Assembly: GCA_964373125.1 (NCBI GenBank)
Contig: CAYJSN010000005.1
Span: 12,958 to 76,957 of the forward strand
Length of the DNA: 64,000 nt
Direction: 5' to 3'
Source of the DNA: an uncultured Nitrosopumilales archaeon
GTDB taxonomy: Archaea > Thermoproteota > Nitrososphaeria > Nitrososphaerales > UBA213
Positions 4,378 through 32,736 of the stretch are shown here, piece after piece (the stretch's first letter is position 1; each line of letters starts with the position of its first letter). Under the pieces are notes generated by a model. The model was not told the DNA's origin. It was given only the letters and a program-made list of their open reading frames with translations, and made no database searches. Made by a program: the position numbers and the translations under genes.

Positions 4378-4560
4378 TTACTCGGCGTAGTGCTCGAGCT
4401 TGACTTCCTGCTTCAGGTAGCGCTTGATGCCGTCCTTGTACTTGTCGAGGCAGACGATCATCAGGTTGAGCAGACATTCATCACATATCGGCTTGTTGCG
4501 ATAGGATACGCCCTTGCCATTCTCAAACTTGAACGGCAGGCCGCAGATCGAGCAGCGCAT
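4378..4560 (-). CDS. hypothetical zinc-ribbon-like small protein
   Basis: 60-aa ORF, MRCSICG...CDEC (CxxC...CxxC). Confidence 0.4.
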   Translation of the reverse strand: MRCSICGLPFKFENGKGVSYRNKPICDECLLNLMIVCLDKYKDGIKRYLKQEVKLEHYAE

Positions 4561-4699
4561 TCTACGCTCTCACGGTCATGGTGGTTAATAAGATTTAGGA
4601 ATCTCACGGAGCTGCCGGTGATTTGTAGTTTACCGCGCAATTTGTAAGATTCCTGATCACCGTTTACACCCAAGGCTGCAACCGTCGGCACAAACGTTT

Positions 4700-5470
4700 T
4701 CAGGATCTGGTTTTTGGCCGGCGCCTTGCCGACCTTATGCTCTTAACTATCGTCCTCAGCAGCCGGTCGGAGCCCTTCTCGAAGGCTGTGCCCACAACTA
4801 TAATATCGGCGCCGGCGCTGGCGATCGCCTTTGCCGACCTGGCGTCCCTTATGCCGCCGCCGACTATCAGCAGCCCGCCGAAGTTCTGCCTCACGGCCGA
4901 GACCATCCCGGGCCCCACACTCCTCGGGGCGCCGGAACCCGCCTCAAGATAGAGCGCCCGCATCCCCATATACTGGGCCGCAAGGGCGTGCATTACCGCG
5001 AGGCCCGGCTTCTCGAAGGGGATCCCCCTCGCCCTCCCGATGAACCAGGCGGTGGTTCCCTCCCCGATTATCAGGTAGCCCATCGGAATTGCTTCTATGC
5101 CATGCTTCTTCACTGCCAGTGCCCCCAGGGCCTGGGCCTGCGTTATGAAGTATGGGTCCTCGGAGTTGAGGAGCGAGCTGAAGAGCAGGGCGTCGGCGTT
5201 TGGCGATATACCGGTAACATTTCCCGGGAATAGTATGACCGGGATCTTCACCGCGGTCTTGATGGCGGATACGGCTTTGTCGAGCTCGATCTGGTCGATG
5301 GCCGACGAGCCGCCGACTAGTATGGCATCGGCGCCGGCGTCCTCCGCGCTCCTGGCCTTTCCCGCGGCTGCCTTGCCCGAGAGTGACTCGGAGTCGATGA
5401 GTGCGAAGCAGAGCGGCCTCTGCCTTGCCTGGCTGGCTATCTTCCTCTCGACCGGGCCCATTGCAACCAC
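4700..5470 (-). CDS. geranylgeranylglyceryl phosphate synthase (PcrB/GGGPS family)
   Basis: 256 aa. ILVGGS...FPG...LLIVGGGIRDARSAKAIASAGADIIVVGTAFE matches the GGGPS TIM-barrel phosphate-binding motifs. A start at 5461 is also possible. Confidence 0.85.
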   Translation of the reverse strand: MVAMGPVERKIASQARQRPLCFALIDSESLSGKAAAGKARSAEDAGADAILVGGSSAIDQIELDKAVSAIKTAVKIPVILFPGNVTGISPNADALLFSSLLNSEDPYFITQAQALGALAVKKHGIEAIPMGYLIIGEGTTAWFIGRARGIPFEKPGLAVMHALAAQYMGMRALYLEAGSGAPRSVGPGMVSAVRQNFGGLLIVGGGIRDARSAKAIASAGADIIVVGTAFEKGSDRLLRTIVKSIRSARRRPKTRS

Positions 5471-5531
5471 TTGATTGGTGCGCGTTATTATCTTTATTAC
5501 AGGCCGGAGCTATACAGATTTGGTAGACAAA

Positions 5532-26349: not shown

Positions 26350-26359
26350 GGAAGGGCAG

Positions 26360-26448
26360 CGGGCTCGGTGGGATTCGAACCCACGACCTACAGCTATCTC
26401 CGATTATCTTAGGAGGCTGCCGCGCTGTCCGTACTGCGCCACGAGCCC
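26360..26448 (-). tRNA. tRNA-Arg (anticodon CCT) with a 14-nt intron at the canonical 37/38 site
   Basis: Hand-folded cloverleaf: GGGCTCG/CGAGCCC acceptor, GCGC D-stem, GCAGC/GCTGT anticodon stem, loop CTCCTAA, GTGGG-TTCGAAT-CCCAC T-arm. The intron AGATAATCGGAGAT has GGAG pairing to the anticodon region. A TATA-like cttaaattta lies about 26 bp upstream. Confidence 0.85.
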
Positions 26449-28667: not shown

Positions 28668-28702
28668 TTGCAACAGACCCGGAATATTCTGGCAGCTCGT
28701 GT

Positions 28703-28716
28703 TAAATATAATAAAG
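28703..28716 (+). promoter_or_regulatory. TATA-like promoter element for tRNA-Val
   Basis: taaatataataaag lies about 25-30 nt upstream of the tRNA 5' end. Confidence 0.45.
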
Positions 28717-28739
28717 ACTTGATCTTGTGTTCTGTGCAT

Positions 28740-28832
28740 GGGCCGGTCGTCTAGCTGGTTAGGATGCCGCTCTGACTCGCGCCAGCGCGAAGAAAACGGC
28801 GGAGGTCGAGAGTTCAAATCTCTCCCGGCCCA
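28740..28832 (+). tRNA. tRNA-Val (anticodon GAC) with a 19-nt anticodon-loop intron
   Basis: Hand fold: GGGCCGG/CCGGCCC acceptor, A73, GTCT/GGAT D-stem, CCGCT/GGCGG anticodon stem, GAGAG-TTCAAAT-CTCTC T-arm. There are 26 nt between the anticodon-stem strands, a 7-nt loop (CTGAC..) plus a 19-nt intron holding the hairpin CGCG-CCAG-CGCG. The anticodon reads GAC under either splice placement. Confidence 0.8.
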
Positions 28833-28839
28833 TTAAATA

Positions 28840-29028
28840 TCACTCGAGAAGTTCGATGAATTCTTCCTTTGTAAGACCTGCCTGCTCTATTATATCCAGC
28901 AACGTTCCGGGCTTAATCTCATCATGTCTTGGAATAATTGTTCGTTTTTTGCCGTCTGCACTACCCATAGAGATGTGACTGCCACGCTGTCGTAGAACAA
29001 CAAAACCCTTCTTGTTCAGAGTTTTCAC
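28840..29028 (-). CDS. hicA: HicA-family mRNA interferase toxin (copy 1)
   Basis: 62 aa from GTG. KKGFVVLRQRGSHISM...IPRHDEIKPGTLLDIIEQAGL is the HicA pattern. Similarity to copy 2 continues about 14 codons upstream (LSDKKLPVLSWRKV), where the only start-like codon is CTG at 29070. Confidence 0.75.
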   Translation of the reverse strand: MKTLNKKGFVVLRQRGSHISMGSADGKKRTIIPRHDEIKPGTLLDIIEQAGLTKEEFIELLE

Positions 29029-29062
29029 GACTTTTCTCCAAGAAAGTACGGGCAGCTTTTTG

Positions 29063-29296
29063 TCAGACAGTGATCTCCATCACTTCTCTTTTTTGCTTAA
29101 GGCGCTTAAGTTCGTCAGGCCACGTTTCTATGTAAAGCTCGATGGCCTCCTTGATGTTCTTCAGGGCCTCTTTTTTTGTATCTCCTTCACTGATGGCTCC
29201 GGGAAGTTCAACGCACCTGATCGAGTATCCACCAACAGCTTCTTTTCTTAGAATAACTGTGAATTTCATGCCACGAACACGGGTCTTGCTCATCAT
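29063..29296 (-). CDS. hicB: HicB-family antitoxin (UPF0150-type, copy 1)
   Basis: 77 aa. KFTVILRKEAVGGYSIRCVELPGAISEGDTKKEALKNIKEAIELYIE is the HicB N-terminal domain pattern. Confidence 0.75.
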   Translation of the reverse strand: MMSKTRVRGMKFTVILRKEAVGGYSIRCVELPGAISEGDTKKEALKNIKEAIELYIETWPDELKRLKQKREVMEITV

Positions 29297-29346
29297 CTTA
29301 TCTCCTTCTATCTGCTAAATAAGCATACTGGAAACTCTGTTAATTT

Positions 29347-29365
29347 AAATCTCTCCCGGCCCATT
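29347..29365 (+). repeat. 19-bp exact duplicate of the tRNA-Val 3' end (att-like)
   Basis: aaatctctcccggcccatt is identical to 28816-28834. Confidence 0.85.
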
Positions 29366-29374
29366 GATTTTATT

Positions 29375-29402
29375 GGTCCGGGGATCAAATCCCCGCAGCC
29401 CA
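29375..29402 (+). pseudogene. orphan tRNA 3'-half-like fragment (different tRNA)
   Basis: GGTCCGGGGATCAAATCCCCGCAGCCCA aligns position-for-position with the variable loop, T-arm and acceptor 3' strand of tRNA-Val (GGTCGAGAGTTCAAATCTCTCCCGGCCCA) but has different stems. No 5' half is present. Confidence 0.5.
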
Positions 29403-29505
29403 TTACGATAGCGGTTCTTAAATTGGAACCACACGTATAATATGGTGGAAGAGATTGAAGGAGCATTTGAATCGAATTATTGTAGGATTGAAAGAAAATA
29501 TGACC

Positions 29506-29604
29506 TAGTTGAGCTATGTGGCTACCTTTCTGTCTGACGGGTACAAAACCAATCTTATGTAATACCTTAAGAATATCTCTCCAGCCAACAGGAGGCAGGC
29601 TCAA
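29506..29604 (-). pseudogene. hicA: truncated hicA (copy 2)
   Basis: ORF 29308..29604 starts (TTG, overlapping the hicB stop as TTGA) with MSLPPVGWRDILKVLHKIGFVPVRQKGSHI, which is HicA-like. After about residue 30 all similarity is lost and the reading frame runs into the tRNA-fragment region. Confidence 0.6.
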
Positions 29605-29822
29605 ATACTTACCTCTACCACTTCTGACCTTTTAGCTCTCTTGGTTTTCGATTCCACGTGTTCCAGCACCAATCCGATCGCTTCCTTGACATTCCTCAAT
29701 GCCTCTTTCTTTGTATTGCCCTCGCTGCGCGCTTGAGGGATCTCGAGACATTGCGCAGTGTACTTCCATTCATGACCTGGCTGTAGAACGATCGTAAACT
29801 TCCTTCTCTTCATATTTGCCAA
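29601..29822 (-). CDS. hicB: HicB-family antitoxin (copy 2)
   Basis: 73 aa. KFTIVLQPGHEWKYTAQCLEIPQARSEGNTKKEALRNVKEAIGLVLEH is a paralogue of copy 1. Confidence 0.7.
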   Translation of the reverse strand: MANMKRRKFTIVLQPGHEWKYTAQCLEIPQARSEGNTKKEALRNVKEAIGLVLEHVESKTKRAKRSEVVEVSI

Positions 29823-29950
29823 AATATCCGCTAATTGATATAAAGATATCGTGCTTACTACGGCTACAAGAAACCAGCTGGCTTGTATCTAACACGTCAC
29901 ATCGGGCCCGAATTTCGCTCGTTTTTGATGCGGAACAATAGCACGACTTA

Positions 29951-31432
29951 TCATCTTCGTTTCTGCTTGCTCTCGGCGAAATAATCGGCCGGCAGCGTCG
30001 CTATGCCGAAGATATCCGGATACATATCATGTATTATCTCAAGTTCGCGGAAGTTCTGGATAGCCTCCGTCGATACCTTCCTAGCCTCATCGGGCTCCAC
30101 GCCCGTTATCTCCGCACGGTCAGGGTGATACCTGATCATTATCTTCCTGAACCTCCGAACGGCATCATCCCAGCGCGTGTCCGGTGGTAATCCCTGCCCC
30201 TCCCAGCTGAGGAGCGAGAGCATCTTGTTCTTCCTGCCGAAGACCTCCTCTAGGCTCATCGCCTCCAAGGTCTTCATCTTCTCCCTCGCGCGCTCCGACT
30301 TTTTCAGCTCGAAGATGAAGTGCCACCGTCCCAGCGTGGCCCTGTCCTTCTCGGCTATCTTCTGCTCCAGCTCCTGACCAGATAGATGGACGCGCATCAG
30401 GTCCCAGATCTCCTCGTAGTATGTTTCTTCAAGCTGCTTCCAGGTCATCCGCCGCCTGTTCTTTTCCCAGACCGACCTGACGACCTCCTTCTCCCGAGGA
30501 TAAAGGATGCCGAGAGCGATGCGGAACATCGTCCAGTCCATCTGTTTCTCGCGCCGCTCCCTCTCCCGCCTCTCCATCTCCTCCGCGCCGAAGGTCTCTT
30601 TGACGAGCTCCTCGAGTATTATCCCCCTGGCGGTCTCGCTGATCTCGGTCGTCGCCGTATCGAGGAAGCTCTGCTCCCTCTCCGCCACCTTCGTGTCAAT
30701 CAGGGTATGATGAATTTCCAGCCAGCTCGATTTCTCCATAAAGTCGAACCACGCGTTCATGTAACCTCTTAGTGCTATCGCGGCCTTCCGCTGCACCCCG
30801 GGCGACCCCTGCCACACCTGCTTCCTGCTGAGCTTCACCATCTCCTCTAGGCTCTTCTGCAGCACGCCCTCCGGGTCAAAGACCCTCTGCACCTCCTTGG
30901 CCGCGGGCAGGCCCGCCCCTATGTAAAGCGTGATCAGGTATGCAAGGCTCGAGCCGAAGAGCATCCCGAAGGCATCGACCCCGCTCCCCCTGAAGAAGTG
31001 GACACGCGGGTCAGCCCTCCACGCTTCCATCATACCGTAGCCGTAGACGATGGTGTCGCGCGAGGCGTCGCTCGCCCCCACCACATAATTTTGCTCGTCG
31101 GCGAAGAGCACGAAGGGATGCTCCAGGCGCGGCCCGGCCAGGACGATCGAGACCCTGCCCTTGCGGACGTCGTCGAAGCACCCGTAAAAGTCCTTTGCCT
31201 TATTGCCCAGGACAGCCTCGACGGGGCCATGTTTTTTGCGCAGGGAGAAGCGCCCGCGCCAGCCCATCCTCACATTCATGGTCTCGAGGGCCGCGCGGAT
31301 CACCTCCCCGAAGGTATGATCCTCGCTTTCGGCATACTTGCTGCCGCGGCCCCACGCAAGCGCCGCTGCGCGGTCCTGGATCGCTCGCTCGAGCTTCTCC
31401 CGCGGTATGTCGCCCTCGCCCAGATAGAACAA
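29951..31432 (-). CDS. 493-aa protein of unknown function with a C-terminal J-domain (HPD motif)
   Basis: The C-terminus WDDAVRRFRKIMIRYHPDRAEITGVEPDEARKVSTEAIQNFRELEIIHDMY has the helix II-HPD-helix III layout of DnaJ J-domains. The N-terminal roughly 400 aa match no family I recognise and include a charged coiled-coil-like middle (EEMERRERERREKQ). Confidence 0.65.
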   Translation of the reverse strand: MFYLGEGDIPREKLERAIQDRAAALAWGRGSKYAESEDHTFGEVIRAALETMNVRMGWRGRFSLRKKHGPVEAVLGNKAKDFYGCFDDVRKGRVSIVLAGPRLEHPFVLFADEQNYVVGASDASRDTIVYGYGMMEAWRADPRVHFFRGSGVDAFGMLFGSSLAYLITLYIGAGLPAAKEVQRVFDPEGVLQKSLEEMVKLSRKQVWQGSPGVQRKAAIALRGYMNAWFDFMEKSSWLEIHHTLIDTKVAEREQSFLDTATTEISETARGIILEELVKETFGAEEMERRERERREKQMDWTMFRIALGILYPREKEVVRSVWEKNRRRMTWKQLEETYYEEIWDLMRVHLSGQELEQKIAEKDRATLGRWHFIFELKKSERAREKMKTLEAMSLEEVFGRKNKMLSLLSWEGQGLPPDTRWDDAVRRFRKIMIRYHPDRAEITGVEPDEARKVSTEAIQNFRELEIIHDMYPDIFGIATLPADYFAESKQKRR

Positions 31433-31596: not shown

Positions 31597-32736
31597 ATGA
31601 GGTCAATAATGGCTTTGGGGCTAGCTATGATACTCCTCGCAAGCATACTTGCAAATAATATCGCTGCCGAGGAGGAGCAGGCCGTAAGTATCACCGGGCA
31701 CAAAATCTACATCGACGACTCCGGCCTAGTGCACTTGACAGGCATAATCGAGAATACGGGCTTGATCCCTGTGGGGTTCCTGCGTGTTACCGCAACCCTG
31801 AAGGATGAGAACGGAGGCAAGCTTCCCACGTTCAATACCTTTGCCCTAGTCAAGACGCTCCAGCCCGGCCAGATCGCCCCCTTTGACATACCGATAAGCG
31901 ACAGGTACGTCAGCGGCAGGGTGGCATCATATGATCTATCTCTGAACTGGAACGTGGTTGATCCAAAGCCGCCAATGCTCGAGTTCTCCGGCATAAGCGC
32001 GTATACCGTAACGCACATGCCCGGCACGGAAGGCTACATGGGCAAGCAGCGCTCCGCCCAGTTCGCGCACAGCCACGAGGCGCACGCGCACTCGGAGGCC
32101 AGCGGCTACGTGACCAACACCAGCGAGCTGGAGGCCAAGTCCGTCAAGACAATGGTGGTCTGGTACGACAAGGACGGGCAGTTCGCCGGGCTCGACTGGC
32201 AGACAATCAGCAAGAAACTTGCGCCGGGAGAGCGCGCCAGGTTCGTCTTCATGTCGCACCCGAGCGCAATGAGCTACTATTCTGTAATCGCGGAGAGCGA
32301 CACCGGAATTGCGATGCTGGAGCAGGACGGCAAGACGAAGATCCCGATCTACGAGTCCGCGAAGCCCGACTTCCAGTTTGCATACCTTGCCAACGCCATA
32401 AGCATCTCTTCGGTGAGGCTGGTGGACGAGAGCAGCCAGCCTGTCTCCAAGGTCGAGGCTGGCAAGATGGTGCTGCTACAATCAGTGATGAAGAACAACA
32501 TGGACGCGAAGCAGAGGTTCATCAGCATCTACCAGATCAAGGACGCGGGCGACTCGACCGTGATGCTCTTCTGGATGGCCAGCCAGATCCCCCCAAGGGA
32601 GTCGCTGGACGCCGCAATCTCATGGATTCCGGAGGCCGAGGGCACCTACACCCTGCAGATATTCATCTGGGAGAGCATGCTGAACCCGGTCCCGCTGGGC
32701 GAGTTTTCGGAATCCACGATAACGGTCTCCAAGTAA
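31597..32736 (+). CDS. secreted/membrane-anchored protein with repeated beta-sandwich-like modules
   Basis: 379 aa with an N-terminal signal/anchor (MALGLAMILLASILANNIAA). The internal modules resemble FxLYD/CARDB-type domains (..HLTGIIENTG..V.V.A.L.DENG.. and ..ASGYVTNTS...VVWYDKDG..). Confidence 0.55.
   Translation: MRSIMALGLAMILLASILANNIAAEEEQAVSITGHKIYIDDSGLVHLTGIIENTGLIPVGFLRVTATLKDENGGKLPTFNTFALVKTLQPGQIAPFDIPISDRYVSGRVASYDLSLNWNVVDPKPPMLEFSGISAYTVTHMPGTEGYMGKQRSAQFAHSHEAHAHSEASGYVTNTSELEAKSVKTMVVWYDKDGQFAGLDWQTISKKLAPGERARFVFMSHPSAMSYYSVIAESDTGIAMLEQDGKTKIPIYESAKPDFQFAYLANAISISSVRLVDESSQPVSKVEAGKMVLLQSVMKNNMDAKQRFISIYQIKDAGDSTVMLFWMASQIPPRESLDAAISWIPEAEGTYTLQIFIWESMLNPVPLGEFSESTITVSK

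Follow-up and report, generated by a model that had tools for sequence, protein, structure and literature searches.

Two hicBA toxin-antitoxin cassettes at a thaumarchaeal tRNA-Val gene resemble integrative mini-cassettes without a recombinase of their own

INTRODUCTION

The att sites of elements integrated into thaumarchaeal genomes have a median length of 17 bp, and 39 of 68 such elements reside in tRNA genes, where almost all att sites occupy the 3' part of the gene, intron-containing genes included (PMC6563490). Units without recombination genes of their own are also known, among them the cis-mobilizable elements (CIMEs) of Firmicutes and the toxin-antitoxin (TA) cassettes of chromosomal integrons. 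Chromosomal TA pairs are plainly mobile, yet they usually lack a mobility gene, and how they move is an old loose end. Here we describe a locus in a 64,000-nt stretch of contig CAYJSN010000005.1 (assembly GCA_964373125.1) from an uncultured Nitrosopumilales archaeon, referred to below as the window, in which a tRNA-Val gene is followed by two hicBA TA cassettes. An earlier sequence-only reading of this DNA had described the site as an integration hotspot with TA modules as its only surviving cargo.

RESULTS

The 3' end of tRNA-Val is repeated on the far side of a hicBA module

The features of the locus are given in Table 1. The 19-mer AAATCTCTCCCGGCCCATT has two exact copies in the window, at 28816-28834 and 29347-29365, and no third was found there even with 3 mismatches allowed; none of 100 dinucleotide-preserving shuffles gave a match. 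The repeat grows to 22 nt with 1 mismatch, its copies lying 531 nt apart. The exact 19-nt duplication of the tRNA-Val 3' end described in the sequence-only reading is thus real, and the search for further copies which that reading had proposed returned none in the window. Among the loci of all relatives examined, the right copy is present only in L020, a metagenome contig.

The repeat of tRNA-Val starts within the T-loop, and those of the tRNA-Thr genes described below start within the anticodon stem-loop; as Williams reportedly described in 2002, these are the two places within a tRNA gene where integrases usually cross over. Judged by its length of 19 to 22 nt and its start in the T-loop, the repeat fits the reported thaumarchaeal integrated elements, which supports the attL/attR form proposed earlier for the two copies.

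ARAGORN labels the target gene Gln(ctg), because a 19-nt intron is present in it. With the intron removed, its exons are base for base the same as those of the intron-less syntenic tRNA-Val(GAC) of L004, which lies beside the CN-hydrolase gene, and the gene is therefore tRNA-Val, as had been read. L006-L009 and L011 likewise have Val(GAC) as the syntenic tRNA.

By comparison with the intron-less orthologue, the intron of tRNA-Val falls between positions 36 and 37; the canonical site is 37/38. A second tRNA of the window (26359-26448, minus strand), called Gly(gcc) by ARAGORN, is actually a tRNA-Arg(CCT) with an intron of ~14 to 16 nt, and L008, L009 and L011 have intron-less orthologues of it, read as Arg(cct). 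Both intron-containing tRNAs of the window carry wrong ARAGORN labels, a point that matters for annotation.

Table 1 Features of the tRNA-Val locus and of related cassettes at other loci (positions refer to the window unless a locus is named)
Feature	Position	Strand	Repeat (nt)	Spacing (nt)	Details
tRNA-Val(GAC), putative insertion target	28740-28832	+			19-nt intron at 28777-28795; intact; Rfam tRNA 51.4 bits, E 3.8e-9
Left direct repeat, attL-like	28813-28834	+			T-loop, 3' T-stem, 3' acceptor strand, A73 and 2 further T
Cassette 1, hicBA module including hicB promoter region	28835-29343	-			~0.51 kb; convergent with tRNA-Val
hicA1 toxin gene	28840-29070	-			PF07927, E 1.9e-16, 60.3 bits (cut-off 27)
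hicB1 antitoxin gene	29063-29296	-			76-77 aa; PF15919, E 4.1e-8, 33.9 bits (cut-off 27)
Right direct repeat, attR-like copy of tRNA-Val 3' end	29344-29365	+			Shared with L020 (18-nt exact match, spacing 528)
Fragment 2, 3' half (T-arm and acceptor strand) of another tRNA	29375-29402	+			Compensatory T-stem
Cassette 2 indel: filler, truncated hicA2, hicB2 and upstream region	29400-29946	-			Absent from L020; GC 43.8%
Orphan CRISPR-repeat-like sequence ATTTGAATCGAATTATTGTAGGATTGAAAG	29465-29495	+			Within filler that stands in for the 3'-terminal two thirds of hicA2
hicA2 remnant, first ~30 codons	29512-29604	-			PF07927 profile positions 1-23 of 58 only
hicB2, intact HicB-like ORF	29601-29822	-			73 aa; PF15919, E 0.005, under curated cut-off
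J493, host gene, right edge of variable region	29951-31432	-			493 aa; GC 59.9%
L020			18	528	Val, arranged as in the window
L034			33	580	Thr(GGT)
L037			49	631	Exact
L050			25	575	
L051, L052			40	614	
L058			52	672	Two full-length tRNA-Thr copies
L059			19	625	Cys
L063			24	652	tRNA without assigned identity
L066			44	663	Two full-length tRNA-Thr copies
vapBC-like cassette	L045 3498-4170				
vapBC-like cassette	L054 693-1332				
vapBC-like cassette	L064 3244-3884				
vapBC-like cassette	L031 1698-2340				
vapBC-like cassette	L071 1516-2175				
vapBC-like cassette	L051 2139-2779				

Cassette 1 is a HicAB module of low G+C content

The repeats enclose two genes only, the minus-strand hicA and hicB, and their Pfam assignments (PF07927 and PF15919) agree with the sequence-only reading of the bracketed genes. 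The HicA1 translation holds RQRGSHISM, in which the conserved His of the G-S-H motif is kept, and a cognate HicB is adjacent in one operon, as in type II HicAB TA systems. HicB1 has 478 homologues, the closest in metagenome-assembled genomes (MAGs) of Nitrososphaerales and Nitrosomirales, and relatives at 83 to 92% identity are numerous in thaumarchaeal MAGs.

The hicB1 stop overlaps the hicA1 reading frame. An open reading frame (ORF) of hicA1 starting from GTG at 29028 has 62 aa and is ~14 N-terminal residues short of the full frame, which begins at a conserved CTG (29070) overlapping the hicB stop. The overlap ACTGTCTGA (window 29063-29070), with the hicB stop and the CTG in it, is conserved across the family, with the same junction in L012-L059, and many family members have no ATG, GTG or TTG start for the full-length hicA frame. 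On the strength of this conservation, the CTG suggests either CTG initiation or termination-reinitiation coupling. Expression of hicA1 is uncertain, since the full-length gene has no canonical start codon.

The G+C content (GC) of cassette 1 is 42.8%, and that of the stretch with fragment 2 and cassette 2 is 43.8%, compared with 57.5% for the window and 55 to 62% for the flanking host genes. The drop of 14 points in cassette 1 puts a figure on the AT richness that had been judged by eye. The intergenic stretch upstream of tRNA-Val is low in GC as well (46%), and composition alone is therefore not decisive.

The stretch between the repeats is a conserved unit in unrelated surroundings

The window DNA from ~28837 to 29333 is 80 to 84% identical to copies in L012-L019 and L021-L029, whose flanks are unrelated to the window and to one another; the aligned stretches begin at ~28832/28838 and end at 29304/29333. 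Homology ends 3 nt from the left repeat and 10 to 40 nt from the right repeat. Because it ends this close to the repeats amid unrelated flanks, the stretch between the repeats is the shared unit. This finding does not support the earlier description of the TA modules as the only surviving cargo, which implies that larger elements decayed: the block of ~0.5 kb is itself conserved elsewhere at 80 to 84% DNA identity, its homology reaching to within 3 to 13 nt of the repeats, and related hicBA pairs at other loci have tRNA-derived repeats spaced 528 to 672 nt apart. A discrete cassette without an integrase is the more fitting description.

The copies are found in diverse positions. In L016 (DSS1), a hicBA copy lies just downstream of another, multi-intron tRNA, in the same direction as that tRNA, and is bracketed by a 34-nt imperfect repeat of the 3' flank of that tRNA. 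In L024 (36-767), an intron-bearing tRNA-Arg(CCT) precedes a one-ORF element of ~0.55 kb, and then a hicBA cassette and a partial T-arm, so that hicBA stands behind the one-ORF element in an array; the one-ORF element is bracketed by a direct repeat of ~65 nt of the tRNA-Arg 3' half, anticodon-loop intron included. In L026 and L027, a hicBA copy is bracketed by a 20-nt exact AT-rich repeat beside a mini-array of clustered regularly interspaced short palindromic repeats (CRISPR). The bracketing repeats of one conserved cassette thus differ between contexts, being the T-arm of Val, the 3' half of Arg, the 3' flank of a further tRNA or an AT-rich 20-mer by a CRISPR array, and the cassette's orientation relative to the tRNA varies between loci.

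Two side observations concern these copies. The L016 tRNA (4690-4825, plus strand) is a thaumarchaeal tRNA, possibly Asp(GTC), with apparent introns in the D-loop and after the T-arm, and ARAGORN and Rfam see only its T-arm; a second intron-containing tRNA (4485-4585, minus strand) is its divergent neighbour. In L013 (~4930-4975 and ~5457-5475), and also in L012, a 10-nt inverted repeat (GATAAGAAGT / ACTTCTTATC) surrounds hicBA, with no direct repeat there.

The site varies between relatives and strains

The best genome matches of the flanking CN-hydrolase are Nitrososphaeria MAGs, the closest being Ca. Nitrosomirales DSS1 (76% amino-acid identity); the host is a thaumarchaeon. In syntenic relatives whose neighbouring gene is 59 to 76% identical in protein (L003, L004, L006-L009 and L011), tRNA-Val is present with a single-copy 3' end and no hicBA at the site. 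In L004, the homologue of window ORF 31597-32736 starts ~90 bp after tRNA-Val, and in DSS1 (L003) an unrelated acidic ORF intervenes, again without hicBA.

L020 matches the window at 98% identity over 28700-29401 and keeps cassette 1 and its repeats. In L020 the stop region of the host gene J493 is reached 10 nt past fragment 2, and cassette 2 (~29400-29946) is missing; the difference from the window begins at the tRNA-like 3' end of fragment 2. As no flanking repeat was found for it, cassette 2 may have been either gained by the window or lost by L020. As a side observation, hicA of L020 (~523-696, window ~28965) has a 1-nt deletion (GAGATTGACTGCC versus GAGATGTGACTGCC) and its HicB is 100% identical; the toxin is decaying in L020 and the antitoxin is retained.

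J493 has one orthologue per genome (49 to 66% identity) in Nitrososphaerales and Nitrosocaldus. Its upstream synteny is conserved, and in all relatives examined synteny is lost at its 3' end. We considered J493 as part of the island and rejected this, since the gene is conserved among thaumarchaea, vertically inherited and host-like in GC. Because J493 is not mobile and synteny breaks at its 3' end, the variable region is 28835-29950. J493 has no Pfam match; its C terminus reads like a J-domain (..IRYHPDR..).

These comparisons of sequence support the tRNA-Val site as a probable hotspot of at least two separate events, as first proposed: L020 has cassette 1 only, and the distant relatives have neither cassette. 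Breaks of Logan contigs inside the tRNA (28766 and 28805) were rejected as evidence of alternative alleles, since a 31-mer spanning the tRNA end is the same in the tRNA-Val of L006 and the breaks are explicable by sequence shared between species.

Fragment 2 derives from another tRNA and adjoins a truncated second cassette

The T-stem of fragment 2 (CGGGG/CCCCG) is fully paired, and its changes relative to the Val T-stem (GAGAG/CTCTC) are compensatory, so fragment 2 comes from another real tRNA. Its L020 version, GGTCCGGGGTTCAAATCCCCGCGGCCCCA, is an undamaged tRNA 3' half; in the window it is degraded, with ATCAAAT in the loop and CAGCCCATT at the end. Its parent tRNA was found neither in the window nor in any of the 114 fetched loci, and no tRNA adjoins the J493 orthologues in other genera, which offer no parent either. 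Fragment 2 is likely an att remnant. It had been recognized earlier as a different tRNA half with no parent in the window, and this holds; the gap between it and the right repeat is 9 nt, not the 10 given then.

The truncation of hicA2 after ~30 codons, with hicB2 intact, also agrees with that reading, in view of the partial PF07927 match and the complete hicB2 ORF (Table 1). The hicA2 remnant is 55% identical to HicA1 over 29 aa, hicB2 is 46% identical to HicB1 over 67 aa, and the mechanically called ORF (29308-29604) continues past the hicA2 homology. The CRISPR-repeat-like sequence in the filler is 93% identical, over 28 to 30 aligned nt, to the 30-nt repeat of the L027/L026 mini-array, which in L027 (213-374) has 3 repeats with a period of 66 nt and stands just upstream of another hicBA copy; the window holds no CRISPR array. 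As cassette 2 has no detected flanking repeat, its arrival, or its loss in L020, may be illegitimate recombination. The sequence GCCCATTA, shared by both left junctions, was tried as a repeat of cassette 2; it is partly ordinary similarity of tRNA ends, and we claim nothing from it.

Related cassettes recur at other tRNA genes

A metagenome scan covered 80 loci encoding HicB relatives (57 to 100% identity), of which 70 had enough flank to be usable. A convergent tRNA T-arm, as gene or fragment, lies within 80 nt of the hicA stop in 21/70, compared with ~0.6 expected from the T-arm motif density in the same loci. In those loci the intact tRNAs belong to Thr(GGT), Thr(CGT) and Cys(GCA), have CCA encoded in the gene and look archaeal. 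The distinct targets are Val, Arg, the tRNA flank of L016, Thr-GGT, Thr-CGT, Cys and the tRNA of L063.

Repeats of tRNA 3' parts bracket hicBA at spacings of 528 to 672 nt (Table 1), and wider spacings of 1033 to 1471 nt hold extra small ORFs. At Thr(CGT), the copy of the tRNA end abuts hicA. Full-length tRNA-Thr(GGT) pairs surround hicBA in L066 (2780-2856 and 3443-3519), where the 5' halves are identical and the T-arms differ, and in L058 (1864-1940 and 2537-2613), where the identical block runs from the D-arm to the 3' end; some insertions therefore duplicate or import a whole tRNA gene. PIN-toxin/antitoxin (vapBC-like) tandem partners of ~0.65 to 0.75 kb occupy the same tRNA-Thr arrays, either between the tRNA and the tRNA-end copy or distal to hicBA.

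Cassettes beside different tRNAs share a conserved motif, AAGAAAAAA..GCGGGAGAAAACGTTTG, that directly adjoins the distal repeat. It takes the form AAGAAAAAA..(G)CGGGAGAAAACGTTTG just before the distal tRNA copy in L037, L066, L058, L059 and L063, and it could be an element end or an arm-type site.

No integrase gene was found near the cassettes

By Pfam, no integrase is encoded within ~10 kb on either side in the window, where only housekeeping domains were seen, in agreement with the earlier statement that no integrase is left. Neither was a transposase or Cas1 found in the cassette proteins or within that distance. A neighbour census of the other loci (proteins of at least 170 aa within 3 kb on either side, top 25 families listed) showed no integrase family among 86 representative proteins and one DDE transposase. 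The PHROGs census of 56 window ORFs likewise gave no integrase among the top 25 families listed. No integrase was found in the 8- to 10-kb flanks of L104-L113, which are TA-rich islands. Viral contigs held no relatives of either HicB query, and neither they nor the ~110 related loci held a helper element or an integrase with the same att specificity.

No inverted repeats were found at the ends of cassette 1. The cassettes do not correspond to insertion sequences, miniature inverted-repeat transposable elements or casposons, for they lack terminal inverted repeats and the duplication is 19 to 22 nt here and 18 to 77 nt elsewhere. Nor do they correspond to integron cassettes: the bracketing repeat is a tRNA 3' end, there is no attC-like inverted-repeat site and no integrase is nearby. 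They share tRNA 3'-part repeats with integrase-type tRNA-integrated elements but not the internal integrase. As in CIMEs, attL and attR are kept and recombination and transfer genes are absent.

DISCUSSION

Origin of the two cassettes

We lean toward the explanation that the tRNA-Val site is an insertion hotspot occupied by two hicBA cassettes, and that cassette 1 is a discrete non-autonomous mini-cassette inserted by att-type recombination with a recombinase acting in trans; the unit is taken as non-autonomous and trans-mobilized because it has no recombinase of its own. The repeats and borders of the cassettes, the polymorphism between strains, the recurrence at further tRNAs and the lack of an integrase nearby are observed; to these we add, by inference, a circular intermediate, an enzyme and an order of events, as follows. 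Cassette 1 would have entered as a circle bearing a duplicate of the tRNA's final ~20 nt. This duplicate would recombine with the chromosomal tRNA 3' end, with the (Campbell-type) crossover in or after the T-loop, rebuilding an intact tRNA at attL and leaving the 19- to 22-nt copy at attR. The enzyme may be an integrase of the tyrosine type whose gene lies at another place in the genome or on a co-resident element, in which case the cassette would behave as a cis/trans-mobilizable, CIME-like mini-element. Cassette 2 would be a separate event, starting at the 3' end of the foreign tRNA 3' half (fragment 2); its toxin would then have been truncated and replaced by filler with the orphan CRISPR repeat, the antitoxin surviving. 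The tandem order could reflect accretion at the regenerated tRNA end. HicB neutralizes the HicA RNase in this family (addiction), which is why an inserted pair would be hard to lose.

This scheme makes the relevant junctions predictable. An empty tRNA-Val site should read tRNA...CCCATT joined directly to GATTTTATTGG, with ...GAGAGTTCAAATCTCTCCCGGCCCATT followed immediately by GATTTTATTGGTCC at the junction, and circular cassette 1 should have the junction ...GGAAACTCTGTTAA-TTTAAATCTCTCCCGGCCCATT-AAATATCACTCGAG.

Several observations weigh against insertion by a recombinase in trans. The close copies in L012-L015 and L021-L023 have no flanking repeat of at least 12 nt, and none was detected around cassette 2. 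The varied repeats and orientations of one cassette are not easily explained by a single site-specific recombinase. In the search for an empty site suggested in the sequence-only reading, distant relatives were seen to lack hicBA and the repeat, and L020 to lack cassette 2, but a precise empty site for cassette 1 was not found in a same-species genome; every contig retrieved by exact-protein look-ups (CN-hydrolase, the 62-aa ORF, HicB1 and J493) was 100% identical to the window. No partner autonomous element or circular junction was found in our searches. The alignment-based censuses, with the top 25 families listed, are supportive and not exhaustive, since a weak integrase match could be missed. 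Many of the tRNA-Thr(GGT) loci are probably orthologous, which reduces the independent associations from 21 to ~6 to 8.

Among the alternatives, it is possible, but in our judgment unlikely, that full-size, integrase-encoding elements integrated and were later stripped down to hicBA and the att sites, since deletion is resisted by the addictive TA pair. TA modules are a classic stabilizing cargo, CIMEs are defined as decayed elements that retain attL and attR (PMC5704250), and decay is visible in the truncated hicA2 and the frameshifted hicA of L020. Against this, independent deletions would not keep leaving a unit of ~0.5 to 0.67 kb with a narrow spacing and the hicA end 5 to 30 nt away from the tRNA, and the DNA enclosed by the repeats has been kept as one block amid unrelated surroundings. 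No larger, integrase-carrying relative was found in the ~110 loci or the viral contigs, and the known thaumarchaeal cryptic elements are at least 2.6 kb and have an integrase by definition. Uniform unit size and block conservation make decay less likely.

An integrase might also be unnecessary. A hicBA circle carrying captured host DNA, mostly part of a tRNA, could have entered by a single homologous (Campbell-type) crossover that duplicated the shared segment, with tRNA parts captured most often because tRNA genes are conserved between species. We consider such an origin improbable; it is kept alive by the use of varied repeats and orientations by one conserved cassette. The repeats differ in length (18 to 77 nt, and a whole tRNA in L058 and L066), sequence, position and orientation, and no integrase is nearby. 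However, 18 to 22 nt is very short for homologous recombination, the repeats tend to begin in the T-loop or the anticodon stem-loop, as integrase att sites do, and the conserved AAGAAAAAA..GCGGGAGAAAACGTTTG at the distal repeat suggests a recognized element end.

Local tandem duplication of the tRNA 3' end and hicBA followed by divergence, without any mobile element, would account for the similar unit lengths (531 and 535 nt register) and identical gene order, but we regard it as excluded for practical purposes, because a 100% identical 19-mer contrasts with cassettes only 46 to 55% identical in protein (at most 77% in DNA), fragment 2 belongs to another tRNA whose stem carries compensatory changes, cassette 1 is nearer to the copies in other genomes (80 to 84%) than to cassette 2, and L020 has one unit only.

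A wider proposal is more speculative. The hicBA clade and the vapBC-like cassettes that share its arrays might constitute an undescribed class of archaeal TA-only integrative mini-cassettes of ~0.5 to 0.7 kb. Such cassettes would tentatively be recombinase-less, bounded by copies of tRNA 3' parts and stacked behind tRNA genes. They might move by a hijacked integrase or by short-homology recombination that exploits the conservation of tRNAs between species. Short tRNA-fragment repeats less than 1 kb apart would escape searches for elements that are anchored on an integrase. The question of TA mobility becomes testable here, because the borders are clean, the tRNA-end duplications are att-like, presence differs between strains and the arrangement recurs at several tRNAs in two distant archaeal groups.

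Comparison with known systems

The thaumarchaeal tyrosine-integrase elements (Krupovic et al. 2019, PMC6563490) are similar to cassette 1 in their tRNA 3'-distal target (intron-containing here), short att repeats, lower GC than the host and possible tandem accumulation. They are 2.6 to 98 kb long, however, and have an integrase by definition, whereas cassette 1 is 0.5 kb, holds only hicBA and has no integrase or replication gene.

CIMEs (Guedon et al. 2017, PMC5704250) share the attL/attR bounds, the lack of recombination and transfer genes, the tandem accretion at a tRNA 3' end and the presumed mobilization by the integrase of a helper, although no helper was found for the hicBA cassette. CIMEs are decay products of integrative and conjugative or integrative and mobilizable elements of Firmicutes (PMC5704250); the hicBA cassette is uniform, contains only TA genes and occurs at several tRNAs in archaea.

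The HicAB pairs of structural-variant hotspots in ANME-1 archaea (PMC13385816), in hicBA gene order, are likewise PF07927 proteins paired with a short PF15919 protein, encoded by overlapping genes that are strain-polymorphic and lie in TA-rich islands. Direct repeats, integrases and a link to tRNA go unmentioned there, the word tRNA appearing once in the text, whereas the hicBA cassettes here are bracketed by tRNA repeats. Bracketing by tRNA ends is described neither in Gerdes's survey of HicA contexts nor in a 2026 study of TA acquisition, nor did we find a description of TA cassettes bracketed by tRNA-end repeats in the searchable full-text literature, subscription journals lying outside that scope. 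Within this literature, integrative elements reduced to a TA pair and att sites, at several archaeal tRNAs, appear to be an undescribed variant.

The TA cassettes of chromosomal integrons are also promoter-bearing TA pairs of ~0.5 kb that form arrays and have no recombinase of their own. They use attC hairpins, whereas the repeats of the hicBA cassettes are copies of tRNAs or their flanks, no IntI or attI was seen and orientation varies. If our interpretation is true, the mini-cassettes would be the tRNA-anchored counterpart of integron TA arrays.

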